Sequence record: PZ166176.1
DNA from: a phage
Direction: 5' to 3' (one strand)
Length of the DNA stretch: 64,000 bases
Every line of letters begins with the position of its first letter. Position 1 is the stretch's first letter. The notes beneath the pieces were generated by a model, which saw only the letters and a list, made by a program, of their open reading frames with translations, was not told the DNA's origin and did not search any database. Shown here piece by piece: positions 2,346-14,349 of this stretch. The position numbers and the translations under genes are program-made.

Positions 2346-2374
2346 GTTGACGTTCCTCACCTGGTAGCGTAGTA
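2346..2374 (+). promoter_or_regulatory. sigma70-like promoter (TTGACG-N17-TAGTAT)
   Basis: ttgacgttcctcacctggtagcgtagtat upstream of ORF 2511. Confidence 0.4.
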
Positions 2375-2510
2375 TTCATCTTGTCGAGGGGGGCGCGGCA
2401 CAACGACAATAAAAAACAGGAGGGCGCAATGTAGGACGGGCAAAGGTGAGGATCTCCATAATCCACCGTCAACCAACAAAAAACATCATTCATCACCTGG
2501 AGTTAAAATC

Positions 2511-2708
2511 ATGGCAACATTGCACATAGTAGCGAAAGCAGGACAAATCAGCGTCGTGGTAAACGGTTTTACTGAGTTCAGTCATCCCCAGGATGATCAT
2601 GAAACGGTTTTATCTTTCATTGATTCACTGTTAGAAATGGGAGTAATTACAGAAGACCAGCACGCTACAAAATGCAAACGCGTTAATCAGATTGCAGGAA
2701 TAGAATAA
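2511..2708 (+). CDS. hypothetical early protein (65 aa)
   Basis: ORF with GGAG upstream of ATG. Confidence 0.55.
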   Translation: MATLHIVAKAGQISVVVNGFTEFSHPQDDHETVLSFIDSLLEMGVITEDQHATKCKRVNQIAGIE

Positions 2709-2714
2709 AAAGTA

Positions 2715-2778
2715 TTGACAACAACCAACAACCTGATAAGATGTATCACATAGGGCGGCGGAATGGTCCACCGCTCAC
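2715..2778 (+). promoter_or_regulatory. PeSL-like cassette: promoter plus 5' stem-loop
   Basis: TTGACA 2715-2720, -10 TAAGAT, then tagggcggcggaatggtccaccgc hairpin, SD, ATG at 2800. Confidence 0.7.
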
Positions 2779-2799
2779 AACAGAAGAGAGATTATAATC

Positions 2800-3072
2800 A
2801 TGGCATCATATAGCGCAACAATGATCGTAGCTGGCACCACTGGTAAACCTATGAGCGGTGGCGGATCTTTCGCAAATATCAACATTGACGGGCGTTTATC
2901 CCTGGACGCAGCGATCACCGTGGCGCGGGAAACATTTAAGAAAGAATGTAAATTCAATAAACAAGATTATCTCGGTTTTGCTATTGAAAAAACCGCGCGT
3001 TTTGTTGATTATAAAAGCCCAAAAATGGTTGATACTACACTAAAAGCGCAAGATGTAGCGTTTTTGCTTTAA
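2800..3072 (+). CDS. hypothetical early protein (90 aa)
   Basis: First ORF after cassette; SD agagag. Confidence 0.65.
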   Translation: MASYSATMIVAGTTGKPMSGGGSFANINIDGRLSLDAAITVARETFKKECKFNKQDYLGFAIEKTARFVDYKSPKMVDTTLKAQDVAFLL

Positions 3073-3075
3073 GGC

Positions 3076-3131
3076 TTGACATTAACGAATAATTTGTTAA
3101 TATGTTACATAAAGCGGGAATAGTTCCCGCT
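3076..3131 (+). promoter_or_regulatory. PeSL-like cassette
   Basis: TTGACA 3076-3081, taatat -10, hairpin gcgggaatagttcccgc 3114-3130. Confidence 0.65.
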
Positions 3132-3148
3132 ATTTGTAAGGTGGTAGA

Positions 3149-3406
3149 ATGTTTTACATCAAATTAAAAGGTCACGTGATCGCGTTCAAAGATAACGCTT
3201 TTTACAGATTAGCAAAATATGCGTTAATACATCCCCACTATGTTTATATAAGGGGGCGTGATGAAATAAATATCTTTGATCAAACAACATGCGAAAACAT
3301 CGAGATCCGCAAGGTTGGCGTACGTGATTATCGTACATCTTTCTACCCTTGCAAGGATTCAGCAAGTCTTTTCAAAGTATGCCAATTGTTGAAAAAAGGT
3401 GGTTAA
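3149..3406 (+). CDS. hypothetical early protein (85 aa)
   Basis: ORF after cassette, SD aaggtgg. Confidence 0.6.
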   Translation: MFYIKLKGHVIAFKDNAFYRLAKYALIHPHYVYIRGRDEINIFDQTTCENIEIRKVGVRDYRTSFYPCKDSASLFKVCQLLKKGG

Positions 3407-3407
3407 T

Positions 3408-3965
3408 ATGGGCCGCGAATATGTGATCCAGTCTTGGGTAAAACATGAAGCAGATGATCCGCGCATCATTCCCGATCATCTTATCGATGAATCCACGGGA
3501 TATAGCGGTGAGCAAATAGGTAACAGGTTAGCACGTAGTAACGGCAACGTAAAAGCGCGTTATGTGCGCCCTGGCTGGCTGGCAAATGGTAACGCTGATT
3601 TATCCAGTGCGGAAGATGCGAGCGACGGCGCGAAAGATAATCCTTTGTACAAAATTGATCCGGCTTTTCGTGTCCTGGATGAATACCCCAACAAGATAGC
3701 GGCGCTCGATCAGGCCCTGGAAAGTAAGCGCATCACCTGGACCGCTTACAACATGGCAAAAAACGTACTTGATGGTAAATTGATTCAAGCCGAAAGAAAA
3801 TTAGCCAAAATTGCAGCCATAGCCCAGGAGGAAGACGAGGAGACAACGGAAGAGGAAGAGTACGAAGAGATCCCGCCGTTGTTGTGTGTTGATGCTTTTC
3901 CTGATTATCAGCCGACAGAGGAAGAAAAAAGGATCGCACTAGAAAACTTTGAAAATAGTCTTTGA
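3408..3965 (+). CDS. hypothetical early protein with acidic C-terminal region
   Basis: ATG at 3408 with SD aaggtgg; the track GTG start at 3399 overlaps the SD; Glu-rich tail EEDEETTEEEEYEE. Confidence 0.6.
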   Translation: MGREYVIQSWVKHEADDPRIIPDHLIDESTGYSGEQIGNRLARSNGNVKARYVRPGWLANGNADLSSAEDASDGAKDNPLYKIDPAFRVLDEYPNKIAALDQALESKRITWTAYNMAKNVLDGKLIQAERKLAKIAAIAQEEDEETTEEEEYEEIPPLLCVDAFPDYQPTEEEKRIALENFENSL

Positions 3966-4020
3966 CATATCGCCGCCACTGGCATAATATTTACCACGTA
4001 GGGCGGCAATGGTGCCGCTC
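3962..4020 (+). promoter_or_regulatory. PeSL-like cassette
   Basis: TTGACA 3962-3967, cataat -10, hairpin gggcggcaatggtgccgctc 4001-4020. Confidence 0.7.
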
Positions 4021-4047
4021 ATAGTGAAATTATGCAAGAGGTTTACA

Positions 4048-4143
4048 ATGATTAATAAAGAAAATAGCTTGACGGTTGGAACGATTAACGCTATCATTTT
4101 CGCCGTTCCATTTTGGGTTGTAGTAGCGGCTATTATTTTCTAA
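4048..4143 (+). CDS. 31-aa hydrophobic micro-protein (predicted single transmembrane helix)
   Basis: MINKENSLTVGTINAIIFAVPFWVVVAAIIF; SD caagagg 7 nt upstream; below the track length cut-off. Confidence 0.45.
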   Translation: MINKENSLTVGTINAIIFAVPFWVVVAAIIF

Positions 4144-4153
4144 AAAAATATTC

Positions 4154-4214
4154 TTGACAACGTTTTTTAATCTGATAAGATGTATCACATAGGGCGGCGG
4201 AATACTTCCCCGCC
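4154..4214 (+). promoter_or_regulatory. PeSL-like cassette
   Basis: TTGACA 4154-4159; same promoter sequence as the 2715 copy; hairpin gggcggcggaatacttccccgcc. Confidence 0.7.
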
Positions 4215-4235
4215 AAAACAAAAAAGGGTAACACA

Positions 4236-4598
4236 ATGAGCAAGCAAATCAATACTATCATGTTTAATCTGGTATCTTTCCGCGACGATATGAAAAATTT
4301 ACCACGTGAAACGGTTGATATTCATGTTTCAGCTTATCGCGCCCTTATTGATATGTTACCGCTAAAACGTGATCAACATGCCGCTAATATGATGCTTAAC
4401 GCTATGCTTAAAAAGATGATTCAAACGGATCTCACCCTGGCATATGAGTATCAAGGGTGCTTATATGCAACTTACAACAAGGCGGTACCTGGTCTGGGAA
4501 GTACCGAAGAATTGCACGGCTTAAACCTGGATCAAAACACTTGGGATAGTATGCGCCGCGTTATGGTATGGGCCGAAAGCGGTAAAATTTACGAATAA
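4236..4598 (+). CDS. hypothetical early protein (120 aa)
   Basis: ORF after cassette. Confidence 0.65.
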   Translation: MSKQINTIMFNLVSFRDDMKNLPRETVDIHVSAYRALIDMLPLKRDQHAANMMLNAMLKKMIQTDLTLAYEYQGCLYATYNKAVPGLGSTEELHGLNLDQNTWDSMRRVMVWAESGKIYE

Positions 4599-4604
4599 AA
4601 ACGG

Positions 4605-4664
4605 TTGACACTGTTTAAACTTCTGGTATAGTTTACCACATAGGGCGGGAAGTGGTTTCCCGCC
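4605..4664 (+). promoter_or_regulatory. PeSL-like cassette
   Basis: TTGACA 4605-4610, TATAGT -10, hairpin tagggcgggaagtggtttcccgcc 4641-4664. Confidence 0.7.
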
Positions 4665-4668
4665 AACA

Positions 4669-5052
4669 ATGAAAAAGGTTATCATCATGGCTATTAATAT
4701 TAATGTTTCCGCTTATGCTACCCTGGCTGACACGGCTAAAATTGAATTATCCAGCATTGAGGTGGTGCATATTAGCGCCCGTCGCTGGTTTCAACAGTCC
4801 TACGGTAACACATATTTTTCTTTAATGGTTGACGTTGAGATCGGCGGTAAACTGATCGAGGTGGTTAACGTTCCGTTTCAATATGGTTATGGTGATCATT
4901 TTGATACCGTCGCCCTGGAAGAATTTAGCAAGGTTGTTAATATGGAAGGCAAAGAGTTTTCACGCGGCGCGTATCTTTCCCGTTTTTGCCGTGACAATGG
5001 GATCACTGTATACAGTCATGCAAGCGATGTAAAACGTAAAAAAGATTTATAA
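4669..5052 (+). CDS. hypothetical early protein (127 aa)
   Basis: ORF after cassette; an alternative ATG at 4687 has the better SD. Confidence 0.6.
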   Translation: MKKVIIMAININVSAYATLADTAKIELSSIEVVHISARRWFQQSYGNTYFSLMVDVEIGGKLIEVVNVPFQYGYGDHFDTVALEEFSKVVNMEGKEFSRGAYLSRFCRDNGITVYSHASDVKRKKDL

Positions 5053-5058
5053 AAAGCA

Positions 5059-5118
5059 TTGACAGCAGGAAGAAAAAGCGTAAAATGTTTTATATCGAGA
5101 GCGGGAATAGTTCCCGCC
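5059..5118 (+). promoter_or_regulatory. PeSL-like cassette
   Basis: TTGACA 5059-5064, taaaat -10, hairpin gcgggaatagttcccgc 5101-5117. Confidence 0.65.
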
Positions 5119-5141
5119 TCACTGAAAAAGAGAGAAAAATC

Positions 5142-5381
5142 ATGGCTAAATCTAAAATGTATAACGGTCACAAAAATAAAACTCACTGGAATGTAAGCCT
5201 TTGGATTAATAACGATGAATCATTATACCGTTTGGCCCAAGATTTTATTAACGCTAATGCTAATCGTAATGATGCGGCGCGGGATATGATGCTTTTTCTG
5301 GAACAAACTGGACAAGATAAAACGCCTGACGGTTTCAAATATAGCACTACTGCGATCCGCGCCGCGATGGTTGGAATGTAA
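5142..5381 (+). CDS. hypothetical early protein (79 aa)
   Basis: ATG 5142 with SD agagag; the track start at 5085 would read through the hairpin. Confidence 0.6.
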   Translation: MAKSKMYNGHKNKTHWNVSLWINNDESLYRLAQDFINANANRNDAARDMMLFLEQTGQDKTPDGFKYSTTAIRAAMVGM

Positions 5382-5390
5382 TAAAAACAG

Positions 5391-5450
5391 TTGACAACGT
5401 TTAAAATTAGTGTAAGATGTATCACATAGGGCGGGAAGTGGTTTCCCGCC
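5391..5450 (+). promoter_or_regulatory. PeSL-like cassette
   Basis: TTGACA 5391-5396, taagat -10, hairpin 5427-5450. Confidence 0.7.
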
Positions 5451-5472
5451 AACAACAGAGAGATTAAAGAGT

Positions 5473-5700
5473 ATGGCTATCAATATTGTTCGCGTATCCG
5501 GCACCGTTGGCACTTCCCAGGTTATTGCAGTTGTAACAAACAAAAAGATTAATGATGCATGTGAAAGCTTGAATAAGTGGGCTATTGCTAATTTTGGGGA
5601 ATATGCAAGCGTCGAGTACATCGAATCCTACCAGGTGCCAACCATCAGCCTAACCGATCTCAACGTTGATCGCCTGTTATGCCTGGATGAATTAATCTGA
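5473..5700 (+). CDS. hypothetical early protein (75 aa)
   Basis: ORF after cassette. Confidence 0.65.
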   Translation: MAINIVRVSGTVGTSQVIAVVTNKKINDACESLNKWAIANFGEYASVEYIESYQVPTISLTDLNVDRLLCLDELI

Positions 5701-5708
5701 AAAAGATT

Positions 5709-5767
5709 GTTGACACGGGAAAGAAAAAGAGTAAACTGTATTACGTAGGGCGGCAATGGTGCCGCTC
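5709..5767 (+). promoter_or_regulatory. PeSL-like cassette
   Basis: TTGACA 5709-5714, hairpin gtagggcggcaatggtgccgc. Confidence 0.7.
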
Positions 5768-5790
5768 ACAACAGAAGAGAGATTATTACG

Positions 5791-6003
5791 ATGGCTAATA
5801 TCCGCACACTGTTAAAAAATGCAAGTCAAGTTTTATTTTCAGATGACGAGTATTTCAATAAAGACATTACAGGCGTGAAGAATATCAAAGATGTAAAAAG
5901 TGTTATGGGTATATATTGCAATGTTAAACGTGTTGGAACGTTCGGTGATAAAGTATTGTACCAATCAGGTGATTACAATTTTACTTTGACGATTATTTCA
6001 TAA
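5791..6003 (+). CDS. hypothetical early protein (70 aa)
   Basis: ORF after cassette. Confidence 0.65.
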   Translation: MANIRTLLKNASQVLFSDDEYFNKDITGVKNIKDVKSVMGIYCNVKRVGTFGDKVLYQSGDYNFTLTIIS

Positions 6004-6007
6004 AACG

Positions 6008-6070
6008 CTTGCAATACTGCAAAAATAAAGTAAACTGTATTACATCAAGGCGGCGGAATGGTCCACCGCC
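6008..6070 (+). promoter_or_regulatory. PeSL-like cassette (variant -35 CTTGCA)
   Basis: hairpin aaggcggcggaatggtccaccgcc 6047-6070. Confidence 0.6.
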
Positions 6071-6094
6071 TAAGAAAGAGAAGAGGAAAATATC

Positions 6095-6262
6095 ATGATC
6101 ACTTTCGCTACCCGTGAAGCCGCTCGCAACGTTGCACGTAAAGTTAACGCCGCCAACCTGGGCGCTACTTTTAAAGCCCCGGTGAAAGATGAATCAGGCA
6201 AATGGATCTTCCCTGGTCTGCGTCACGCTGATAAGCTAGGCACTTTAAGCCTTAAAAAATAA
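6095..6262 (+). CDS. 55-aa basic small protein
   Basis: MITFATREAARNVARKVNAANLGATFKAPVKDESGKWIFPGLRHADKLGTLSLKK; SD aagagg; below the track cut-off. Confidence 0.5.
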   Translation: MITFATREAARNVARKVNAANLGATFKAPVKDESGKWIFPGLRHADKLGTLSLKK

Positions 6263-6264
6263 TC

Positions 6265-6303
6265 GTTGACTTTTCGTTATAGCGCCTTATAATGGGCGCT
6301 ATA
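6265..6303 (+). promoter_or_regulatory. promoter plus variant stem-loop
   Basis: TTGACT 6265-6270, hairpin tatagcgcc-ttataatg-ggcgctata. Confidence 0.5.
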
Positions 6304-6336
6304 GAGAAGAGAAACCACTACTAACAAGGAAACATC

Positions 6337-6558
6337 ATGATCACTTTCGCTATTGTCGCCGTTGTCGCTGGTCAAGTTTACGTAAATGAGACATTTACTA
6401 CAGAAGACAAGGCCGCAGGAGACATAACCGCCGTTTACAATGAGTGCAAGGCAGTAGAAAGGATGTTAGCGCCTTGTATGTTAATGAGTGAACGCCAGGA
6501 CGGGATAACAGTGTTTACTAACATTGAGACAGGGTACCAAATGGTAGTAACAAAATAA
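6337..6558 (+). CDS. hypothetical early protein (73 aa)
   Basis: ORF; shares N-terminal MITFA with the 6095 ORF. Confidence 0.6.
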   Translation: MITFAIVAVVAGQVYVNETFTTEDKAAGDITAVYNECKAVERMLAPCMLMSERQDGITVFTNIETGYQMVVTK

Positions 6559-6561
6559 AGC

Positions 6562-6619
6562 TTGACACGGATTTAATTTTCAGTAAACTGTTACACGTAG
6601 GGCGGGAATAGTTCCCGCT
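6562..6619 (+). promoter_or_regulatory. PeSL-like cassette
   Basis: TTGACA 6562-6567, hairpin gtagggcgggaatagttcccgc. Confidence 0.7.
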
Positions 6620-6636
6620 AAAAAGAGAGAAAGACC

Positions 6637-6990
6637 ATGAAAGCACAAAATGCAATTAAAGAGTACATCCTTGCCGCTATCGATTTTAATGATTACGGTA
6701 TTACAACCGAAAAAGAGAAGATCGCGGAATTGATGCGCCGTTTTAATTCCGAGTACTGGTACCCTGATAACCAATCACGTTTTAATTATAGTATTGTTAA
6801 AGCACTTGCATCATGGTTACAAGGTTTGCCATCAAATATCAATATCGCTTTCGAATATTGGGAAATTGATCGTTTGTTAACATCCTGGGGATACATTAAA
6901 GAGAATAGCAGCGATGATAAAATCCAACGAGAAAGGGAAAATTATTGGCTTTATATTGCAGGCGTGATCCTTGCTTGCTCTTATGAATGA
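6637..6990 (+). CDS. hypothetical early protein (117 aa)
   Basis: ORF after cassette. Confidence 0.65.
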   Translation: MKAQNAIKEYILAAIDFNDYGITTEKEKIAELMRRFNSEYWYPDNQSRFNYSIVKALASWLQGLPSNINIAFEYWEIDRLLTSWGYIKENSSDDKIQRERENYWLYIAGVILACSYE

Positions 6991-6996
6991 TAAACC

Positions 6997-7052
6997 TTGA
7001 CAATTTTACAAAACAGTTTAAATTAACAATATAGCGGCAATGGTGCCGCTCA
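6997..7052 (+). promoter_or_regulatory. PeSL-like cassette
   Basis: TTGACA 6997-7002, hairpin atagcggcaatggtgccgct. Confidence 0.65.
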
Positions 7053-7069
7053 TATGAAGAGGAAACAAA

Positions 7070-7216
7070 ATGAATACATCTAATCGCGCAGAAAAAATTC
7101 AATCTTCCAAGATCCGCAAGGCCTGGAACGAGGAAGTGATCCGCAAAGGCGACAAGCGCAATAAAACAAAGCGCGGGAAGAGTGACAAATATAATTGGAT
7201 GGATTTAGAGGATTAA
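7070..7216 (+). CDS. 48-aa lysine/arginine-rich small protein
   Basis: MNTSNRAEKIQSSKIRKAWNEEVIRKGDKRNKTKRGKSDKYNWMDLED; SD agaggaaac; followed by a terminator. Confidence 0.5.
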   Translation: MNTSNRAEKIQSSKIRKAWNEEVIRKGDKRNKTKRGKSDKYNWMDLED

Positions 7217-7223
7217 CATAACA

Positions 7224-7250
7224 AGGGCGCACCAAGCGCCCTTTCTTTTT
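7224..7250 (+). terminator. rho-independent terminator (GGGCGCACCAAGCGCCC family)
   Basis: agggcgcaccaagcgccct plus ttctttttt; the same hairpin recurs at 12701 and 13265. Confidence 0.7.
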
Positions 7251-7271
7251 ACATGTAGAGGATAAACAAAA

Positions 7272-7457
7272 ATGACTTTAAACGAGCTTAAAACAGCCTA
7301 CAGCACAACATTAAAAATAGCCGTGCGCTACCGTGACGAATACGGTTTTATTGCGCAGGGCGTGATCCTGGGCTTTTCTGACGATGGTTTGATCTATGTT
7401 GATGCACATCATAACAAGGTAAAACCTGAAAACGTCATTAGCATAAAATATCTTTAA
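7272..7457 (+). CDS. hypothetical early protein (61 aa)
   Basis: ORF with SD gaggat. Confidence 0.55.
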   Translation: MTLNELKTAYSTTLKIAVRYRDEYGFIAQGVILGFSDDGLIYVDAHHNKVKPENVISIKYL

Positions 7458-7463
7458 AAGTGG

Positions 7464-7523
7464 TTGACACCATAACTGGACCTGTTAAACTGTATTACAT
7501 CAGGCGGGGAATAGTTCTCCACC
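7464..7523 (+). promoter_or_regulatory. PeSL-like cassette (degenerate hairpin)
   Basis: TTGACA 7464-7469, hairpin caggcggggaatagttctccacc. Confidence 0.55.
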
Positions 7524-7542
7524 ATACAAAAAGGTAAATATT

Positions 7543-7749
7543 ATGATCACCGCAAAACAAGAGAAAATCATTATCGACGTTGCAGCCGTTGCCGCTATTG
7601 CTATTATTGGATCTTATTATGATACCCGTTTCCCGTCGGCTATGCATGAGGTCGCCGCCGTTGCATCAGTTGGCGTACTGTTTTACGTTGGTAAACGCTA
7701 TTTATCACCAATGATTAACAAGCTGACACCGTGGAAAAATAAAGGTTGA
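7543..7749 (+). CDS. hypothetical membrane protein (68 aa)
   Basis: Two hydrophobic stretches (AAVAAIAIIGSYY, AAVASVGVLFYVG). Confidence 0.6.
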   Translation: MITAKQEKIIIDVAAVAAIAIIGSYYDTRFPSAMHEVAAVASVGVLFYVGKRYLSPMINKLTPWKNKG

Positions 7750-7800
7750 TCCTGTTTTATATTGTGTTATAGTTATCGTGTAGGGCGGCAATGGTGCCGT
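7746..7800 (+). promoter_or_regulatory. PeSL-like cassette (variant -35 TTGATC)
   Basis: hairpin gtagggcggcaatggtgccg 7779-7800. Confidence 0.55.
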
Positions 7801-7820
7801 GCCCCTTTGAGGATGCAATC

Positions 7821-8105
7821 ATGAGTAAAGCTAACACCGTGCTAATGTTTTCCCTGATTAATGATCTCGCTTACTTGTCCAACATGACGCAGGAGGGTAA
7901 CACATTAACGGCAACATTCACCAATAAGCTTGACCGAGTGATCATCATCTCACTGAAAACAGTTAGTAAAGGCTTTTACTCGTTAGCTTATCATTGGATC
8001 ACCGATACCAATGAGACAAGCCAGGACTATAGCGCCCCTTTCCCTGAATCAATGGCACGGGAGATCATCGCCGCCGTTGTAAATGATGGTTTGTTTACTG
8101 AATAA
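7821..8105 (+). CDS. hypothetical early protein (94 aa)
   Basis: ATG 7821 with SD gaggatg; the track start at 7791 lies inside the hairpin. Confidence 0.6.
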   Translation: MSKANTVLMFSLINDLAYLSNMTQEGNTLTATFTNKLDRVIIISLKTVSKGFYSLAYHWITDTNETSQDYSAPFPESMAREIIAAVVNDGLFTE

Positions 8106-8123
8106 AATAATTTAGAAAAAGGC

Positions 8124-8180
8124 TTGCAATCATTTTGAGATAGTGTATATTTAATTCATAGGGCGGCGGGAATAGTTCCC
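8124..8180 (+). promoter_or_regulatory. PeSL-like cassette
   Basis: -35 TTGCAA, hairpin catagggcggcgggaatagttccc. Confidence 0.6.
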
Positions 8181-8203
8181 AAAGCAAACGAGAGGATTAC
8201 ACG

Positions 8204-8323
8204 ATGAGCAAGTACACAGTAGAATACACGGTAGAAAATCCGGCAGTATCCGAAGGTAAAAAGATGACATTTGCCATCAGTATAATCGCTTTCGTTGTCA
8301 CTATCTTATCAATCATGTTATAA
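8204..8323 (+). CDS. 39-aa micro-protein with C-terminal transmembrane helix
   Basis: MSKYTVEYTVENPAVSEGKKMTFAISIIAFVVTILSIML; SD agagga. Confidence 0.45.
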   Translation: MSKYTVEYTVENPAVSEGKKMTFAISIIAFVVTILSIML

Positions 8324-8333
8324 GGTGCACACC

Positions 8334-8495
8334 ATGAAAACAACAGACATTATCAAAGAGATCGCCCTTGCCGCTGGCGTTGAAGTCGAGGAAGTGATCG
8401 CGCTCAATCTTACAGAAAAAGATCTGCGCAACTATGAAGCGGAAAGCGTGAAAGCAAGCGGCGCGGTCCTGGTATATGATCCGGCTAACAAGTAA
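8334..8495 (+). CDS. hypothetical early protein (53 aa)
   Basis: ATG 8334 (MKTTDIIKEIAL...) after SD aaggtg; the track start at 8295 overlaps the upstream micro-ORF. Confidence 0.5.
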   Translation: MKTTDIIKEIALAAGVEVEEVIALNLTEKDLRNYEAESVKASGAVLVYDPANK

Positions 8496-8504
8496 GGGGA
8501 TAAC

Positions 8505-8615
8505 ATGAATCCGAAAGATATGCAAGCATGGAAAGGGTACGACGATCTAAGCGCCTTGCGCAATAAGTCAAGCCGTAACCTTAGACGGTTGGAAGCAAAG
8601 AAAAAGAAAAAATAG
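8505..8615 (+). CDS. 36-aa basic small protein
   Basis: MNPKDMQAWKGYDDLSALRNKSSRNLRRLEAKKKKK; SD aagggga. Confidence 0.4.
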   Translation: MNPKDMQAWKGYDDLSALRNKSSRNLRRLEAKKKKK

Positions 8616-8675
8616 TTTGACAAGTCCGCCTAGTCTGATAATATGTATCTTGTAGGGCGGCAATGGTGCCGCTCA
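8616..8675 (+). promoter_or_regulatory. PeSL-like cassette
   Basis: TTGACA 8616-8621, hairpin tgtagggcggcaatggtgccgctc. Confidence 0.7.
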
Positions 8676-8693
8676 CAAGAAGAGAGAAAAATC

Positions 8694-8978
8694 ATGAAAA
8701 TCACAAAAAGCCTAACTAATTATGCAGCACGTCGCGGATTATGTTTAACCGTTGAAAACTTAGGGAAAGAAGACTTTTTGTGTTTTTGGGAGCTTGAAAA
8801 TGATTGCGAGTGGATGTTTTCTTATTCTATCTGCGAAGATCAAAACGGTTGTTTGTTAACCTGGCGCGGTAATATCTATTTACCGGAAGAAATTAAAGAA
8901 GAGTTACCAGGTACGATCATGACAGAGAGACAGCTTAAGGAAATGATTAATTTTGTAGGGCAAAACATTAAAAAATAA
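8694..8978 (+). CDS. hypothetical early protein (94 aa)
   Basis: ATG 8694 with SD agagag; the track start at 8643 reads through the hairpin. Confidence 0.6.
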   Translation: MKITKSLTNYAARRGLCLTVENLGKEDFLCFWELENDCEWMFSYSICEDQNGCLLTWRGNIYLPEEIKEELPGTIMTERQLKEMINFVGQNIKK

Positions 8979-9040
8979 TTTGACAGCACGCAAACAACGT
9001 AGTAAAGTTTACCACATAGGGCGGCGGAATGGTCCACCGC
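8979..9040 (+). promoter_or_regulatory. PeSL-like cassette
   Basis: TTGACA 8979-8984, hairpin identical to the 2751 copy. Confidence 0.7.
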
Positions 9041-9063
9041 TCACAACAGAAGAGAAACAAATC

Positions 9064-9234
9064 ATGATCCCGACTATGTTTTATGTATCGCGCAAAGGTC
9101 ACAATATTTTTTGGTCTGAAGATTTAAACGAAGCTATGACGTTTGCCCGTGATCGTGTTGCTATCGGTGGCGTTAACATCACCGTAACCGATGAAAACGG
9201 CATTGAATACTATAACGGCGACGATGAAGAGTAA
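9064..9234 (+). CDS. hypothetical early protein (56 aa)
   Basis: ATG 9064 (MIPTMFYVSRKG...) with SD agagaaac. Confidence 0.55.
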   Translation: MIPTMFYVSRKGHNIFWSEDLNEAMTFARDRVAIGGVNITVTDENGIEYYNGDDEE

Positions 9235-9240
9235 TTAATG

Positions 9241-9263
9241 AGGCGGGGAGTATTCCCCGCCGT
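9241..9263 (+). other. stand-alone GC stem-loop with no promoter upstream
   Basis: gaggcggggagtattccccgccg immediately before the SD of ORF 9281. Confidence 0.5.
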
Positions 9264-9280
9264 CAATAAAGAGGTAAATC

Positions 9281-9550
9281 ATGAAAATATCATTGGACGT
9301 TGCAATCAAGGCCATCGAATCCGGTTACATCCTGGTAAAAGATGATAAGGCTAAAATAGTGCATCATGTTAACAAGGAAACAGGCGAAAGCATGATCACA
9401 TATAAAGCCGCCTATTTTCTCCAATCAGTAGCAGATCCGCGCGTACAACGCCAGGTTACGGCGGCTATTGCTAAAAAATTGTGTTCCTTGCAGGGTGCAA
9501 GTTTTAACGAGATCCCGCCGTGTTTTGAGTGGTCAAGCTTGAAAAAATAA
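9281..9550 (+). CDS. hypothetical early protein (89 aa)
   Basis: ORF with SD agaggt. Confidence 0.65.
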   Translation: MKISLDVAIKAIESGYILVKDDKAKIVHHVNKETGESMITYKAAYFLQSVADPRVQRQVTAAIAKKLCSLQGASFNEIPPCFEWSSLKK

Positions 9551-9551
9551 T

Positions 9552-9613
9552 TTGACAACAATTATAAATCGGGTAGAATGTATTTCGTAGGGCGGGGCAA
9601 TAAGGCAACGCCC
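9552..9613 (+). promoter_or_regulatory. PeSL-like cassette
   Basis: TTGACA 9552-9557, hairpin tagggcggggcaataaggcaacgccc. Confidence 0.65.
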
Positions 9614-9631
9614 ATTAATGAGGGTAGAATC

Positions 9632-9736
9632 ATGTTAGAGAAAATTTTCACGGTTGTAATAGTGGGCCTGGCGTTATCGGTTGGAGTGGTTGCAACTATG
9701 GCTAACATGATCCTATCTTCCCACGGTATCGGTTAA
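9632..9736 (+). CDS. 34-aa hydrophobic micro-protein
   Basis: MLEKIFTVVIVGLALSVGVVATMANMILSSHGIG; SD gagggtag. Confidence 0.45.
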   Translation: MLEKIFTVVIVGLALSVGVVATMANMILSSHGIG

Positions 9737-9737
9737 G

Positions 9738-9962
9738 GTGAAACAAATGATCACGAACAAAACAGGCAAAACGGAATTTTTACGCGGCTTACAAGTTGGT
9801 AAGCCTGAGATCTGGCATTGCACGAAGTCCGCGCATAATGAAATGAAAGATTTTACCGCTACTTTACAACGTGTTAAAATATCTATCACACAGAAAAAAG
9901 CCTTGTTAGTAGTAGAAAACGAGATCCCGCAAACTATTATTATTGTCGAGCGTACAGCATGA
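9738..9962 (+). CDS. hypothetical early protein (74 aa)
   Basis: ORF with SD aaggtgaaac. Confidence 0.6.
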   Translation: MKQMITNKTGKTEFLRGLQVGKPEIWHCTKSAHNEMKDFTATLQRVKISITQKKALLVVENEIPQTIIIVERTA

Positions 9963-10345
9963 AAACAGAAATCATTATTGAAATCATCAACGGCTATAAA
10001 GAAGCCTTTATTTTTGCTGAATCAGCAAGGGATCATGAAGGTAATTTTATTGATAACTTAGACGATTATGATTTTTCTCCTAGCGCAGATCAACGGATCG
10101 CCCAGGATGTAACAGCCTTTATTAATGCTAATCTTGCCGCTATCTCTGAGGCAATGAGCGACGGCGCAACAGCCAACCAGATCGGGAATGATTTACATTT
10201 TACCCGTAACGGTCACGGCGTAGGCTTTTGGGATCGCCCTGAAATATACACCACTAACACAGCCAACCGCCTAACCAATGCAGCTAAGTTTATGCCGAAC
10301 GTGTCGGCTTACATTGGTGAAGATAATTTGATTTATATTGAATAA
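9959..10345 (+). CDS. hypothetical early protein (128 aa)
   Basis: Start overlaps the upstream stop (ATGA coupling). Confidence 0.65.
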   Translation: MKTEIIIEIINGYKEAFIFAESARDHEGNFIDNLDDYDFSPSADQRIAQDVTAFINANLAAISEAMSDGATANQIGNDLHFTRNGHGVGFWDRPEIYTTNTANRLTNAAKFMPNVSAYIGEDNLIYIE

Positions 10346-10351
10346 AAAGTA

Positions 10352-10410
10352 TTGACACAGATCGCCAGTGTGCTAATATTTACCACGTAGGGCGGCAATG
10401 GTGCCGCTCC
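10352..10410 (+). promoter_or_regulatory. PeSL-like cassette
   Basis: TTGACA 10352-10357, -10 taatat, hairpin gtagggcggcaatggtgccgctc. Confidence 0.7.
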
Positions 10411-10428
10411 CCGAAAAAGGTAAACATT

Positions 10429-10620
10429 ATGAAAACCATCTCCTACCTGGAATCGAATAACATGTTTTTTGCGCCCGTTGATGAAATCATCGAAGCATTA
10501 AACAACGAGGAAGGGATCAAAGGTTTATCTTATAGCCAACTTTTAGGAATGGTTGCAGCAAATGAAGAGCTTGCTTACTATGTTGAAAATTTTGATGAAG
10601 CTGTAATCTTTACAAAATAA
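10429..10620 (+). CDS. hypothetical early protein (63 aa)
   Basis: ORF after cassette. Confidence 0.65.
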   Translation: MKTISYLESNNMFFAPVDEIIEALNNEEGIKGLSYSQLLGMVAANEELAYYVENFDEAVIFTK

Positions 10621-10622
10621 TC

Positions 10623-10680
10623 CTTGATCTAATCTCTTAGATAACTTATATTTAATGCGTAGGGCGGCAATGGTGCCGCC
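10623..10680 (+). promoter_or_regulatory. PeSL-like cassette (variant -35 CTTGAT)
   Basis: hairpin gtagggcggcaatggtgccgcc. Confidence 0.55.
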
Positions 10681-10698
10681 GATAATGAGGAAAGTAAA

Positions 10699-10998
10699 AT
10701 GGAAACTATCGCTATTATTACCGTAGAAAAACTGGTTGTTGGTGATGTATTCGCGTTAATGGTGCCTAACAGTAGCAAGCTGGGCGCTTATGAAGTGATG
10801 GATCATAAAAATGAATCATTTGGCGACGGTTGCACAATGGCGGTAAAATCTTTAAAGGATGGAATCATCCGTCAAGCTAATTGGCACAAAGGAAATCAAG
10901 TCGGATTAATATCAGCTAATTTCTTGCCAGAAGAGCAAACGTTAGACCAACTATCAGGCGGTAAGACGTTAGCCGAACTACTGGAAACAGCGATCTAA
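10699..10998 (+). CDS. hypothetical early protein (99 aa)
   Basis: ORF with SD gaggaaag. Confidence 0.65.
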   Translation: METIAIITVEKLVVGDVFALMVPNSSKLGAYEVMDHKNESFGDGCTMAVKSLKDGIIRQANWHKGNQVGLISANFLPEEQTLDQLSGGKTLAELLETAI

Positions 10999-11042
10999 TC
11001 AACAAAGGGGCGGCAACGCCCCACATCAGAAAGGAAAAGATT

Positions 11043-11279
11043 ATGAGTATTGCAACAGTATTAACCGCCGTTAAAACCGCTGAATCATCCGGCTTGCATG
11101 TTGAGCTTATAGATCAACCAGGTGGCGATCTCCTTGTCCAGGTTTACCCGCCGAAAGTAGGGGATGATCATTATTGGTGCTATTCCGATACGTTCGAACA
11201 AGTAGACACGAAAGCGATCACGGCTTTTATTTTAAAAGCTATTGAAGAAAATAATTTTCATTATAACATCAATCAATAA
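11043..11279 (+). CDS. hypothetical early protein (78 aa)
   Basis: ORF; preceded by a promoter-less hairpin ggggcggcaacgcccc. Confidence 0.6.
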   Translation: MSIATVLTAVKTAESSGLHVELIDQPGGDLLVQVYPPKVGDDHYWCYSDTFEQVDTKAITAFILKAIEENNFHYNINQ

Positions 11280-11334
11280 ACCATAAGCGCGGCGGTAACG
11301 CCCCATTAAACGCAATAGGAAGAGGCTAGAAAGC

Positions 11335-11619
11335 ATGAAAAAGATGATCGCAGTAGTTGCCCTGGTTGTTGGTATTAACGCGCCTGTAATGGCGAAAGAG
11401 TTGCCAGAATCCATCACGTTAACCGATATTAACGCAGTGAACCGGATCGGCGTTAATTATCGCCTATGCCTTGCCGCTAAAACTTTCCAGGACGGCACAA
11501 CAGAGTACTACGGATTCGAGGGTATCCGCTGCGGTGAGCTTGCACGCGACCTTAAGGAAGATCCAGACCTTGAGGCCATACCGATGACCGTAAACGGTAA
11601 AGCTTACGTAAGCCGCTAA
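11335..11619 (+). CDS. secreted small protein with predicted signal peptide (94 aa)
   Basis: N-terminus MKKMIAVVALVVGINAPVMA is signal-peptide-like; SD aggaagagg. Confidence 0.6.
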   Translation: MKKMIAVVALVVGINAPVMAKELPESITLTDINAVNRIGVNYRLCLAAKTFQDGTTEYYGFEGIRCGELARDLKEDPDLEAIPMTVNGKAYVSR

Positions 11620-11621
11620 CC

Positions 11622-11756
11622 ATGAGAAAGGTAATCATCACAATGGGGATCGTAGTAGCAACGCTGGCGCTTATCCCTTTCATGGTTGAACATGTGCTGA
11701 TTAATGTTGTCCTGGTAGTCAGTGACCTATTGGAAACGGTTGGCAACTGGTTTTAA
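11622..11756 (+). CDS. 44-aa hydrophobic micro-protein
   Basis: MRKVIITMGIVVATLALIPFMVEHVLINVVLVVSDLLETVGNWF; followed by a terminator. Confidence 0.45.
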   Translation: MRKVIITMGIVVATLALIPFMVEHVLINVVLVVSDLLETVGNWF

Positions 11757-11765
11757 GATAAATAA

Positions 11766-11793
11766 ACAGGGCTTGTTTTTGTCCTGTTTTTTG
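11766..11793 (+). terminator. rho-independent terminator
   Basis: acagggcttgtttttgtcctgt plus tttttt. Confidence 0.7.
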
Positions 11794-11932
11794 TTATACT
11801 TATTGAACGGGCGGCACCTGGGAGCAGGGGGAAGATAATCACCGGACGACCCCGCTATATATTGATAGCTAACATCTATCAAACAACAAAACATCAAAGA
11901 GATAAACTATCAAATCTTTACAATCCTACCTA

Positions 11933-11991
11933 TTGACACCGGATCACGCTTACATTATCATTTATCACGTAGGGCGGGAATGTTTCCCGCC
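11933..11991 (+). promoter_or_regulatory. PeSL-like cassette
   Basis: TTGACA 11933-11938, hairpin gtagggcgggaatgtttcccgcc. Confidence 0.7.
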
Positions 11992-12009
11992 TGATTTAGG
12001 AGTTATATC

Positions 12010-12243
12010 ATGATCGAACAAATTAAAAGCACTAAACCAAATGTTAACGGTAATGTTTCTCACTTTATCGGGGATAATGAAAGAGGTACACCGTACGCCG
12101 CCGTAACCGTTCAACCGAACGGGGATTATTGGTTTACCGTGTACGGATCTTACTCTTTTGGACGTTCGGCACATGATAAGATCTTGCAAGTGGTTAAGCC
12201 TACTGGGAAGAATATCACAGCAGAAAAATTTTATAAAAAATAG
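12010..12243 (+). CDS. hypothetical early protein (77 aa)
   Basis: ORF after cassette, SD ttaggag. Confidence 0.65.
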   Translation: MIEQIKSTKPNVNGNVSHFIGDNERGTPYAAVTVQPNGDYWFTVYGSYSFGRSAHDKILQVVKPTGKNITAEKFYKK

Positions 12244-12303
12244 CTTGCTTTATTTCTCCTGTTAACTTATAGTTATTGCGTAGGGCGAGCAATACAGCAA
12301 GCC
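12244..12303 (+). promoter_or_regulatory. PeSL-like cassette (variant)
   Basis: -35 CTTGCT, hairpin gtagggcgagcaatacagcaagccc. Confidence 0.5.
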
Positions 12304-12321
12304 CACAAAGAGGAAAAGAAG

Positions 12322-12690
12322 ATGAGCAAATCAGCAATTAAAGCACTTGAAAAAGCACAAGAAGTGATCGCAACGTCAACCACTGGCGCAAAGGTTAATC
12401 TCGTTGGTTATCTGGCAGATGAAACTATCCGTAAAAATTGGCGTAATGCTGATTTACTGGCTTGCTTATTGATTAATAGTGTCGCTAATGCTTTCCAGTG
12501 TGAAACAGCCGAGAGCCTGGAGGAAAACTTGTTTGATAATATGGATCAAGCCATTGAAACCTATATACAGTCAAACCTGGATAGCTGGAACAGTAAAACA
12601 TGGCCCGACAATTTACGCGATACAACTGATCAACTGATCCGCCTTGCCGTGATGGTTGAACGCGATAACGTTTACAACAGCACAAAGTAA
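12322..12690 (+). CDS. hypothetical early protein (122 aa)
   Basis: ORF with SD agaggaaaag. Confidence 0.65.
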   Translation: MSKSAIKALEKAQEVIATSTTGAKVNLVGYLADETIRKNWRNADLLACLLINSVANAFQCETAESLEENLFDNMDQAIETYIQSNLDSWNSKTWPDNLRDTTDQLIRLAVMVERDNVYNSTK

Positions 12691-12700
12691 GATTATACAA

Positions 12701-12722
12701 GGGCGCACCAAGCGCCCTTTAA
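12701..12722 (+). terminator. terminator hairpin (GGGCGCACCAAGCGCCC family)
   Basis: gggcgcaccaagcgccc plus ttt; weak T tract. Confidence 0.55.
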
Positions 12723-12747
12723 CGTAAAGAAATGTAAATAATGCGCT

Positions 12748-12782
12748 ATCCCCTATTGACAGGGGATCGGCGTTATATTATA
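12748..12782 (+). promoter_or_regulatory. promoter with -35 hexamer inside a hairpin loop
   Basis: atcccctaTTGACAggggat with -10 tatatt downstream. Confidence 0.45.
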
Positions 12783-12829
12783 TTTAACTCACTGGCAGCA
12801 AACAACAAAACGAAACAAAGGATAACACT

Positions 12830-13249
12830 ATGAACATTAAATCAAATAATCCAGCTTACTCCTTCGATAACGCTTTTTGTCACGGTAGCGCCGCCAAAGG
12901 CTTCGAAATCGATGGTAAATTGGTTATCGTGAACGTTGACGGGGAAGAGGTTGCAGTGTATCCGGTAAACGATGTTAAAAGCCGTTTACAATGCCGCATG
13001 GATGTTACCGCATATCAGCTTGATCCGATCCGTGTAGTTGCCCTGGTATTAGAGGAAGAGATCAAAGCAATGCATCACAGTAATAAGTTTATTGGTGACG
13101 CGCAGGATAATATGAACGTTTGCCGCCATAAAGTTAATGAAGCACTGAAAGAATGCGGTTTTAAGGATCTGATGATCAAACGTGATGAAAAATTCCGCTT
13201 TCGTAATGACCTGGCAAACCGGATCTACTCAATCTATGAAGCGTTATAA
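12830..13249 (+). CDS. hypothetical early protein (139 aa)
   Basis: ORF with SD aaaggat; terminator downstream. Confidence 0.65.
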   Translation: MNIKSNNPAYSFDNAFCHGSAAKGFEIDGKLVIVNVDGEEVAVYPVNDVKSRLQCRMDVTAYQLDPIRVVALVLEEEIKAMHHSNKFIGDAQDNMNVCRHKVNEALKECGFKDLMIKRDEKFRFRNDLANRIYSIYEAL

Positions 13250-13264
13250 TTGACAACAAAACAA

Positions 13265-13291
13265 GGGGCGCACCAAGCGCCCTTTCTTTTT
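13265..13291 (+). terminator. rho-independent terminator (GGGCGCACCAAGCGCCC family)
   Basis: gggcgcaccaagcgccc plus tttcttttt. Confidence 0.7.
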
Positions 13292-13498
13292 GCCCGAACA
13301 ATGTTGATAGCTTTCGCCTATGAAAAACCGACACAGAACAAAATTGAATAAATCGCGGTATCGAGCTAATCAACCATTAAACGAATAACCATACCTCCCA
13401 GGGTAACAGGCTGTTAGAGAGCCATTTATAGCGGTTAAAATCGATCAACAACCAACAACAAACCATCAAAAACACCCTTTTACCTCCTTTCTAGTGCA

Positions 13499-13516
13499 AT
13501 GATAACCATTATCATC
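13499..13516. promoter_or_regulatory. Fur-box-like palindrome
   Basis: aatgataaccattatcat. Confidence 0.4.
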
Positions 13517-14056
13517 TATCCATGTTTATCTATGCAATATAAGTGCATAACTATAATGTTGATAATAGTTCGCAACAACTAACTAACCAACAACCTAAAA
13601 CAATAAGCAAACTAATCATAATCAAAGGAATAATAGCAAGATGATTGATAACGACAAACAATCAAACCATGATGAATACTAAGCAAGATAACGATAACAC
13701 GACAAAACAACCAACTAACGAACAATAACAAACGAAACCATTAAAATAATAACTATTGCCATAATAGTGACTGAATGAAATCATTACAAAACGAATCATT
13801 CCCAGGATCATCATTAGCACGCTATGCCGGACACATAGCGAGCTAATAATAAGCCAACTACACCCCAACAATCATAACCATCGGTGATGGTTATTTCTTG
13901 TTACTGCGTAGCTTGCAATGATTGCAAGCGTAATGACGCTTACACTCATTGCGCTGGCTTATTATTAGCATTATATGTAATTACCAAGATCATAACATTA
14001 GCGCAATAACAATAATCATTGTAATGGTTACAATATGAAATCATTAGCATGGCAAT

Positions 14057-14212
14057 AATTATTGGGGGCAATGGGAGGATGATTATCATCATTCCGATAC
14101 ATTGCACACTATGCACATAATAGAATAAAAGTCAATAATTTTGGGGGCGAATACTATCGCGTAGCGATATGTTGAGCACTAAGAAAAGAGATAAACCTTA
14201 ATCATGGGGGCG
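14057..14212. repeat. three direct repeats of a TGGGGGC core
   Basis: attattgggggcaatggg (14057), aattttgggggcgaatac (14135), aatcatgggggcgtaaat (14198); a second direct repeat ATGTTGAGCA at 14165 and 14248. Confidence 0.5.
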
Positions 14213-14330
14213 TAAATATCCGAGGATTGCCAACGGCGATCCGGTAGGATGTTGAGCATCTTCTCTTAAACGTAAATAAAATCAGAAAATTCTTGATTTA
14301 TTATGGTTTTTATGTTAATAAATGTTTAAA

Positions 14331-14349
14331 TAATAATCATTCTCATATG
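14331..14349. promoter_or_regulatory. Fur-box-like palindrome
   Basis: taataatcattctcatatg. Confidence 0.4.

Follow-up and report, generated by a model that had tools for sequence, protein, structure and literature searches.

Promoter and hairpin cassettes before the small genes of a Phapecoctavirus-type phage: a probable array of expression units and recombination joints

The phage DNA of sequence record PZ166176.1 (64,000 nucleotides; this whole stretch is called the window) carries an array of 23 cassettes, each with a promoter and a hairpin, in front of small genes. Comparison with nine related phages supports the view that, as read from their sequences, these relatives gained, lost and swapped genes by recombination within the repeated cassettes. 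The explanation which we favour, and hold to be probable, is that the array is a hyperplastic early-gene region of standardised autonomous expression cassettes, in which the hairpin acts as a predicted 5' leader and as homology for recombination. The parts of this explanation are not equally firm: we are largely confident of the promoter cassettes and of the recombination, while the role of the hairpin as an mRNA stabiliser, argued by analogy, is proposed tentatively.

Anatomy and confinement of the cassettes

The whole window was scanned for promoters with a TTGACA-like -35 element, a spacer of 15-18 nt and a -10 element of the form TAnnnT, and the downstream 45 nt were folded. The initial annotation had described at least 23 promoter and stem-loop cassettes before small genes, with TTGACA, a spacer of 16-17 nt and a TA-rich -10, and both statements were confirmed by direct reading of positions 2400-13200 and by the cassette tables: 23 promoter-bearing cassettes lie on the + strand between 2715 and 12829 (Table 1). 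The -35 is exactly TTGACA in 17 of them, the others reading TTGACT (one), TTGCAA (two), TTGATC (two) and TTGCTT (one), the spacer is 17 nt long in six cassettes and 16 nt long in the remaining 17, and the -10 is of the form TAnnnT. These are near-consensus sigma70 promoters, and a consensus promoter scan puts the same sites at the top of its ranking. An A-tract with the stop codon of the preceding gene is found about 12 nt or less from the -35, and the cassette extends over about 75-85 nt from this stop codon through the ATG of the small gene.

A GC-rich hairpin of 6-10 bp, which usually opens with RTAGGGCGG (hereafter the box), lies 3' of the -10 in 21 of the 23 cassettes. The median folding free energy (dG) of these downstream hairpins is -14.9 kcal/mol, compared with -5.6 +/- 2.7 in shuffles. 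The predicted transcription start is a pyrimidine-purine (Y|R) step 7-8 nt past the -10, and the hairpin begins 0-5 nt (median 3) later in these 21 cassettes. The two other cassettes are 6266 and 12756 (cassettes are named by the first position of the -35), in which the hairpin wraps the -10 or the -35, respectively (z about -4 to -6). The second of these contains the promoter that had been noticed inside a hairpin loop near 12748, and its -35 is indeed located there. The linker between the end of the hairpin and the ATG is 17-27 nt long and 51% A, with U making up 11% of its first 10 nt; it carries a purine-rich Shine-Dalgarno (SD) sequence at -12 to -8 and has A at -3 in 21/21 cassettes.

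With at most one mismatch allowed, the box occurs 17 times in the window against 4.9 +/- 2.3 times in shuffles, none of 100 shuffles reaching 17, and 15 of the 17 matches are on the + strand between 2750 and 11977. The promoter and folding scan gave no promoter with a GGCGG-type box hairpin in the window outside 2.7-12.3 kb of the + strand. Elsewhere in the window there are a few promoter-like sites with a stable downstream hairpin, for example on the - strand at 57553, 56576, 51091 and 32752, the sequences of which are unrelated. The hairpins do form subtypes, but these number more than the three originally distinguished: GCGGGAATAGTTCCCGC is present 3 times, and the spelling first given for subtype B, GGCGGGAATAGTTCCCGCC, has no exact occurrence. 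Also, among the three hairpins listed as promoterless, those at 9241 and 11004 are significant folds (z -4.2 and -4.3), whereas at 11285 there is a degenerate copy of 4 bp (z 0.04). An Rfam scan of the window returned 0 families at the gathering threshold.

The array region is 95-97% identical to Phapecoctavirus genomes, among them Mt1B1_P17, P3322, EP57, tuntematon and ESCO13 (Stephanstirmvirinae). Judged by sequence, the window phage is a Phapecoctavirus of the phAPEC8/phi92 group, that is an E. coli myovirus of about 150 kb, and not a T4-type phage. The complete genome of phage B15 (150 kb) has all its 16 RTAGGGCGG boxes on one strand between 7366 and 16581, which is 6% of the genome. The cassette genes of the window encode 31-185 aa and all match PHROGs of unknown function, except the two genes most variable among the relatives, for which there was no PHROG match; the ten largest cassette genes had no Pfam match. 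We additionally observed a stray cassette in B15 at 136276, on the - strand and thus opposite to the array, with the sequence TTGACA-16-TAAGAT-...GAAGCGGGGAATAGTTCCCCGC. B15 (MG065650.1, about 97% identical) is one of about 19 GenBank records titled Campylobacter phage, among them A150 and A110a, that match the array; the B15 record is flagged UNVERIFIED and the assignment to a Campylobacter host looks doubtful.

Gene exchange at the cassettes

The first 16 kb of the window were compared with the nine relatives by pairwise blastn. This revealed about 18 distinct junctions in the array, many of which are whole-gene indels with flanks that overlap by 8-38 nt in the relative, and such an overlap is the product expected of recombination between two repeats. 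The segments found only in relatives consist of a gene with its own promoter and hairpin. Three-way alignments place the points of exchange within the repeats: the four relatives that do not have gene 10429-10620 possess a single hybrid cassette, identical to cassette 10352 up to the common CGTAGGGCGGCAATGGTGCCGC and to cassette 10624 beyond it, and in the loss of 12010-12243 the parent switches within CGTAGGGCG. The switch points of hybrid cassettes also include GGCGG(C/T)AACGCCCC. In the relative anhysbys, the loss of 11043-11279 involved a switch within the two promoterless hairpins, and the loss of 12830-13249 a switch within two identical terminator copies (12697 and 13263). Terminator repeats also serve as exchange points, and since these repeats are unrelated to the box, the exchange looks homology-driven and not site-specific.

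Exact identity of at least 20 nt is found in 24 of 210 cassette pairs, with a maximum of 43 nt; its centre is formed by the box and hairpin, whereas the promoter halves are not alike. Cassettes 8980 and 2715, for example, have in common an exact 43-mer that comprises the end of the discriminator, the box and hairpin, and the linker. The comparison can be extended to FV3, an rV5-like phage of the Vequintavirinae, which has only four of the array genes in common with the window at the nucleotide level, and these in a different order. The FV3 cassettes are 74-93% identical to those of the window and have the same promoter-then-hairpin layout, and gene 12010-12243 is, by its sequence, a cassette gene relocated between the subfamilies. 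The modular gene shuffling suggested in the initial annotation is borne out by these data: whole-gene indels and replacements in the nine relatives are bounded by cassettes, hybrid cassettes occur, and FV3 has reordered genes. On the FV3 map itself, the homologs of 9632-9962 and 11335-11619 have the segment 8503-8732, which corresponds to window 12007-12239, upstream of them.

The cassettes had been likened to promoter-early stem-loop (PeSL) elements, which are described from the T4-type phages RB49/phi1, PST/T4 and nt-1/KVP40 (Arbiol et al., 2010, PMC2839356; Comeau et al., 2014, PMC4122927). The stem-loops of PeSLs fall into five positional subclasses, the commonest lying between -35 and -10 or across the -10, and the criteria for PeSLs include mini-circles excised via recombination between flanking elements (PMC2839356; PMC4122927). 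The likeness holds for the layout of the module: in both cases an AT-rich tract with the stop codon of the gene upstream comes first, and then a strong sigma70-type promoter, a stable stem-loop, an SD and a start codon. It also holds for the clustering in a hyperplastic region of small ORFan genes, for the indels and replacements between close relatives that cross over inside the module, and for the minority of window cassettes in which the stem-loop spans the -10 (6266) or the -35 (12756). However, the lineage is different: PeSL hosts are T4-type, whereas the window phage is a Phapecoctavirus and the same design recurs in rV5-like Vequintavirinae. Most window hairpins (21/23) lie 3' of the -10, hence in the predicted 5' untranslated region (UTR), which is the rarest PeSL subclass, whereas those of phi1/RB49 are mostly within or across the promoter. 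Furthermore, the window hairpins open with RTAGGGCGG and have no U-tract, whereas the RB49 stem-loops are, in a comparison by description, of the G-tract/C-tract kind. In our view, the array works like a PeSL system in a non-T4 lineage, but does not belong to the T4 PeSL family in the strict sense.

Selective constraint and the role of the hairpin

After projecting the nine relatives onto the window, we counted the divergence of each part of the cassette. The -35 diverges by 0.2%, followed by the stem (3.0%), the SD region (3.3%), the 5' tail (3.7%) and the -10 (4.1%), and the values rise to 6.6% in the loop/bulge, 6.6% in the discriminator, 6.9% in the spacer and 7.4% in the linker, compared with 7.5% at third codon positions. 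The -35, the stem and the SD are under purifying selection, and the loop, spacer and linker drift at about the rate of third codon positions. Counted as variable sites, the contrast amounts to 38/344 (11%) in stems, 22/111 (20%) in loops and 77/341 in spacers. In 58 stem-pair cells the relatives deviate from the window: the pair is kept by a one-sided change in 33 and by a two-sided change in 11, and is broken in 14. All fetched loci taken together yield about 65 distinct hairpins of the box type, and their loops, of 3-8 nt, come in more than 20 versions. We relied on the substitution rates of stem versus loop because pair-count covariation would be uninformative; classical covariation statistics were dropped, as MAFFT misaligns the 3' arms between subtypes and pairs within a subtype are near-invariant.

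According to the favoured explanation, the host sigma70 RNA polymerase would fire all cassette promoters at once on infection. Going by the promoter geometry, the primary transcript would start with pppR-U-A and would immediately fold into a 5'-terminal hairpin, which may hinder 5'-end-dependent decay by RppH/RNase E; base-paired 5' ends are known to slow RNase E (review PMC3997798). The A-rich, U-poor linker would keep the ribosome site open and expose little single-stranded RNA between the hairpin and the ribosome, and the hairpin leader would insulate the ribosome site from its context, giving good expression of any gene behind the cassette. Such a standard leader would make expression independent of the gene that follows it, which suits a region evolving by cassette exchange. 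On the DNA level, the box and hairpin, being the longest identity between cassettes, would provide homology for phage or host recombination, and this recombination would delete, insert, replace and relocate units composed of a UTR, a gene and the next promoter.

The stabilising part of this explanation has its model in the 5'-terminal stem-loops that stabilise the ompA and papA mRNAs of E. coli (Emory, Bouvet and Belasco, 1992, cited in PMC3997798), as these are presented in the citing review. They resemble the window element in having a stable hairpin a few nucleotides from the 5' end, which in our case is a predicted end, and after it a short single-stranded leader, most of which lies under the initiating ribosome. 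The window element differs in that it is repeated about 23 times in a mobile module and has a predicted stabilising role, whereas ompA and papA, in the account of that review, have single-gene leaders.

Several points weigh against this explanation. Both the 5'-terminal position of the hairpin and the early timing are predictions from promoter geometry, and the literature searched on the Phapecoctavirus/rV5 group reports neither mapped transcription starts nor half-lives of transcripts nor the timing of transcription. With 0-5 (median 3) unpaired 5' nucleotides, protection from RppH/RNase E is plausible but borderline, and read-through from upstream would put most hairpins inside polycistronic RNA and not at its 5' end. 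Folding of the sense and antisense strands gave 32 and 19 hairpins (p 0.05), a marginal difference which does not separate an RNA role from a DNA role. The compensatory changes that the initial annotation had anticipated are present insofar as 44 of the 58 changed stem-pair cells keep their pairing, but the two-sided changes are largely swaps of one subtype for another at an orthologous position, the replacement always being another stable hairpin. Within the gap-free register of subtype A the core stem pairs almost never vary, so true covariation by point mutation is scarce, and low stem divergence could partly come from gene conversion among the repeats and not from structural selection. As for the recombination, cassettes make up 20% of the region and contain 14 of 34 junction ends (p 0.004), yet this enrichment is partly expected, since viable indels must avoid disrupting genes, and the test is weak; the hybrids in register are stronger evidence for cassette recombination. 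Two indels (8494|8496 and 9736|9954) do not have cassette boundaries. Finally, the RB49 stem-loops, described by their authors as G-tract/C-tract, terminated transcription in vivo (PMC2839356; PMC4122927).

One would argue from this last fact that the window hairpins are terminators or attenuators, which damp read-through from the upstream co-directional promoters. An RB49 PeSL stem-loop cut lacZ expression as much as rrnB T1 did (PMC2839356; PMC4122927), and the promoterless hairpins 9241 and 11004 stand between genes. Some attenuation would also be sensible where 23 co-directional promoters are accompanied by just four terminator-type hairpins, namely those at 7223, 11764, 12697 and 13263, with a clear T-run in all but 12697. 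However, what follows the cassette hairpins is rich in A and poor in U: there is a median of 0 T in the first 8 nt beyond the stem, compared with 6, 6 and 5 at the terminators 7223, 11764 and 13263 (the 12697 copy has 2), and by this sequence measure the cassette hairpins do not fit canonical intrinsic terminators. For termination the phage uses other, canonical hairpins with a T-run. Additionally, 21 of the 23 hairpins are situated 3' of their own promoter and would attenuate its transcripts too. We regard a terminator role as unlikely.

Another view is that the repeats have no function and are a by-product of duplication and gene conversion of one ancestral promoter-leader. Identical blocks of 22-43 nt common to non-adjacent cassettes with different promoter halves agree with it, as do the frequent subtype swaps and the near-invariance of stem pairs within a subtype, where covariation is almost nil. 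Conversion alone can hardly create the contrast between stems and loops in variable sites, or the preservation of pairing in most changed cells. Moreover, many different sequences with loops of 3-8 nt all fold, and the element is kept across two phage subfamilies beside unrelated genes. The chance that the repeats are functionless seems to us very small.

The conservation of the RUAGGGCGG tail and stem base in sequence (5' tail 3.7% and stem 3.0% versus about 7% at neutral positions), and the retention of the same box in Vequintavirinae, would also be expected if the box and hairpin were the binding site of a phage or host protein. This protein might be a repressor of translation, an RNA chaperone, or a factor for early-to-middle shut-off or for antitermination, and it could then co-regulate the cassette genes as a regulon. 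However, the loops (at least 20 variants) and the distal stems vary freely, which is unusual for a specific RNA-protein site, and the conservation of the box is also explained by a constraint on the start site and initial transcript and by gene conversion. The analysis yielded no candidate for the binding protein. We consider such a regulon rather improbable. A separate lead, an Srd-like protein (rV5 gp11, labelled HNH endonuclease in RefSeq), was dropped, as tblastn gave no homolog in the window or in the B15 genome.

Array layout, known counterparts and significance

The features of the array are listed from left to right in Table 1. The array is flanked by two stretches without genes, 1165-2510 (1.3 kb) and 13290-14860 (1.6 kb). 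The left one contains a 29-nt tandem, iteron-like repeat at 1606-1714 and 72-nt direct repeats at 1384/1522, the repeats together spanning 1384-1715; the repeats at 1606-1747 are also conserved in FV3, a distant phage. In both flanks, AATGATAATCATTCTCATT-type palindromes similar to the Fur box of E. coli are abundant, and 9 of the 13 window matches to such palindromes (at least 14/19 positions) fall in the two flanks. Possibly, the gene-free flanks are an origin, a regulatory region or a Fur decoy. Within the array, about 140 nt without genes separate terminator 11764 from the next cassette (11764-11932).

Table 1. Features of the array, all on the + strand. Cassettes are numbered 1-23 and begin at the first nucleotide of the -35, with the exception of cassette 23. 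Promoters are given as -35, spacer length in nt and -10; dG in kcal/mol.
Feature	Coordinates	Promoter	Hairpin	Gene downstream	Remarks
Degenerate 24th cassette, first in array	2347..2510	TTGACG-17-TAGTAT		2511-2708	Relatives have GTAGGGCGGCAATGGTGCCGC after the promoter; in place of a hairpin the window has an unrelated segment of 113 nt, 2376-2490, which is specific to it and does not fold significantly (z +1.3)
Cassette 1	2715..2799	TTGACA-16-TAAGAT	2753-2776, subtype C, dG -15.0	2800-3072	SD
Cassette 2	3076..3148	TTGACA-16-TAATAT	3113-3131, subtype B	3149-3406	
Cassette 3	3962..4047	TTGACA-17-TAATAT	4001-4020, subtype A	4048-4143 (31 aa)	
Cassette 4	4154..4235	TTGACA-16-TAAGAT	4193-4214	4236-4598	
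Cassette 5	4605..4686	TTGACA-16-TATAGT	4644-4664, subtype B2	4687-5052	Relatives have an additional gene and cassette here (238-267 nt insertion)
Cassette 6	5059..5141	TTGACA-16-TAAAAT	5097-5120	5142-5381	
Cassette 7	5391..5472	TTGACA-16-TAAGAT	5430-5450, subtype B2	5473-5700	
Cassette 8	5710..5790	TTGACA-16-TAAACT	5745-5769, subtype A	5791-6003	
Cassette 9	6009..6094	TTGCAA-16-TAAACT	6048-6071, subtype C	6095-6262	
Cassette 10, variant	6266..6336	TTGACT-16-TATAAT	6277-6304, -10 in loop, z -5.7	6337-6558	308-314 nt insertion in the UTR in relatives
Cassette 11	6562..6636	TTGACA-16-TAAACT	6601-6619, subtype B	6637-6990	
Cassette 12	6997..7069	TTGACA-16-TAAATT	7033-7050, subtype A core	7070-7216	
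Canonical intrinsic terminator	7223..7251		7223-7243, AAGGGCGCACCAAGCGCCCTT		Copy 1 of three near-identical; T-run
Cassette 13	7464..7542	TTGACA-16-TAAACT	7503-7523	7543-7749	
Cassette 14	7746..7820	TTGATC-16-TATAGT	7783-7802, subtype A	7821-8105	
Cassette 15	8124..8203	TTGCAA-16-TATATT	8163-8185, weakest, dG -7.8	three-gene mini-operon from 8204	
Cassette 16	8617..8693	TTGACA-16-TAATAT	8652-8676, subtype A	8694-8978	
Cassette 17	8980..9063	TTGACA-17-TAAAGT	9019-9042, subtype C	9064-9234	
Promoterless hairpin	9235..9269		GAGGCGGGGAGTATTCCCCGCCGTC core, z -4.2	9281-9550	Left edge of replacements in relatives
Cassette 18	9552..9631	TTGACA-16-TAGAAT	9590-9613	9632-9736	Promoter half 93% identical to an FV3 cassette
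Cassette 19	10352..10428	TTGACA-16-TAATAT	10390-10409, subtype A	10429-10620	Gene missing in four relatives
Cassette 20	10624..10698	TTGATC-17-TATATT	10663-10680, subtype A	10699-10998	Recombination partner of cassette 10352
Promoterless hairpin	11007..11022		GGGGCG-GCAA-CGCCCC, z -4.3	11043-11279	
Degenerate promoterless hairpin	11291..11302		GGCG-GTAA-CGCC, alone not significant		Recombination partner of 11007 in anhysbys
Intrinsic terminator and insertion hot spot	11764..11797				Relatives carry 200-1028 nt of additional genes exactly here
Cassette 21	11933..12009	TTGACA-17-TATCAT	11972-11992	12010-12243	Gene missing in four relatives, relocated in FV3
Cassette 22	12245..12321	TTGCTT-17-TATAGT	12283-12304	12322-12690	
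Terminator-type hairpin	12697..12719				Copy 2; recombined with the 13263 copy in anhysbys, 12830-13249 deleted
Cassette 23, variant	12743..12829	-35 TTGACA at 12756	12743-12773, -35 in loop, z -4.2	12830-13249	No hairpin downstream of the promoter
Intrinsic terminator	13263..13293		13263-13285		Copy 3; right boundary of the array

Part of the element is already present in databases under another name. The record of phage phAPEC8 (NC_020079.1) labels the box and hairpin 20-mers GTAGGGCGGCAATGGTGCCG and GGGCGGCGGGAATAGTTCCC as 'putative promoter determined with PHIRE' (556-575, 937-956, 1787-1806 and 3202-3221), directly 3' of features labelled 'host dependent promoter determined with MEME'. 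Neither the hairpin, nor its fixed position after a sigma70 promoter, nor a role in recombination is annotated in this record. The Phapecoctavirus/rV5 literature searched, to which the phAPEC8 announcement did not belong, gives generic promoter counts or hexamer lists and no description of a hairpin.

If the label were taken literally, the 20-nt repeat would itself be a phage-specific promoter for an RNA polymerase encoded or modified by the phage. The annotation of GTAGGGCGGCAATGGTGCCG as a promoter in GenBank and the occurrence of the repeat upstream of many genes are in line with this, and the repeat also bears what we take to be a loose resemblance to CACTATAGGG of T7-type promoters. However, the repeat always stands 7-8 nt past an excellent sigma70 -10, exactly where the transcript would begin, and because no other part of the module is as conserved as the -35, it is the sigma70 promoter that is the selected one. 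The four largest open reading frames of B15 (at most 1017 aa), which encode a tail spike, an RCC1/Big_2 fibre, a family A DNA polymerase and one protein that does not match Pfam, include no RNA polymerase family of Pfam, smaller sigma-like factors being outside this screen. We judge a phage-specific promoter to be extremely unlikely, and the PHIRE promoter is probably a mislabel of the 5'-leader hairpin behind a sigma70 promoter.

Other phages, too, have densely packed sets of tiny early genes. One of them is reportedly the host-takeover module of the Bacillus phage SPO1, a description associated with Stewart and colleagues in 1998, and the early regions of T4 have early promoters with A-rich upstream tracts. 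In these systems, as in the window array, the early genes are very small, and many of them have a strong SD and a strong promoter of host type to themselves. We know of no description of the SPO1 or T4 early regions that mentions a repeated, conserved 5' hairpin as a recombination joint.

Integrons offer another comparison, as their attC sites are hairpin-forming repeats that separate small genes in arrays and at which an integrase exchanges promoterless cassettes in a site-specific way. The window units differ in having their own promoters and in crossing over wherever identity exists, the terminator repeats included; no integrase was seen in the window, although no search was aimed at integrases. 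A bolder proposal would make the hairpin a selected dual-purpose joint, which marks and protects early transcripts as RNA and is a dedicated exchange site as DNA, possibly one that a structure-specific enzyme of the phage cuts or pairs and that gives mini-circles. If this were true, Stephanstirmvirinae and Vequintavirinae would trade host-takeover or anti-defence genes in a plug-and-play manner, as a lytic-phage counterpart of the integron, but we think it very unlikely.

Beyond these phages, a scan of IMG/VR for a promoter followed by TAGGGCGG gave about 20 unrelated families, roughly half of them with the box in a hairpin, compared with about 12 families, roughly a quarter in hairpins, for a composition-matched reversed-box control. 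This excess was not convincing, and the claim of a universal element made of a promoter and a TAGGGCGG hairpin was dropped. Among the hits, unrelated high-GC viral contigs have a terminator-like hairpin, a TTGACA...TAGGGT promoter, a GTAGGGCGGGAGAATCCCGCC hairpin, an SD and an ATG. Their modules of hairpin and SD recur every 250-690 nt before small genes; by the reversed-box control, the shared box is not beyond chance.

The array is not categorically new. It is a well-resolved case, from a second phage group of medical relevance, in which regulatory cassettes act as recombination joints, and its distinctive feature compared with the known PeSLs is the 5'-leader hairpin. The findings correct the database annotation of the PHIRE promoter, which would be read as a 5'-leader hairpin behind a sigma70 promoter. 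They also provide a natural library of compact, insulated promoter-leader parts, the 5' hairpin of which is open to mRNA-stabilisation tests. About 35 small ORFan genes are probable immediate-early, individually expressed candidates for host takeover or anti-defence. Above all, the idea behind PeSLs, that regulatory cassettes double as recombination joints which drive the turnover of accessory genes, is extended beyond T4-type phages to the phAPEC8-, phi92- and rV5-like coliphages, a large group in therapeutic use, and the natural recombinants are resolved at the level of single nucleotides.

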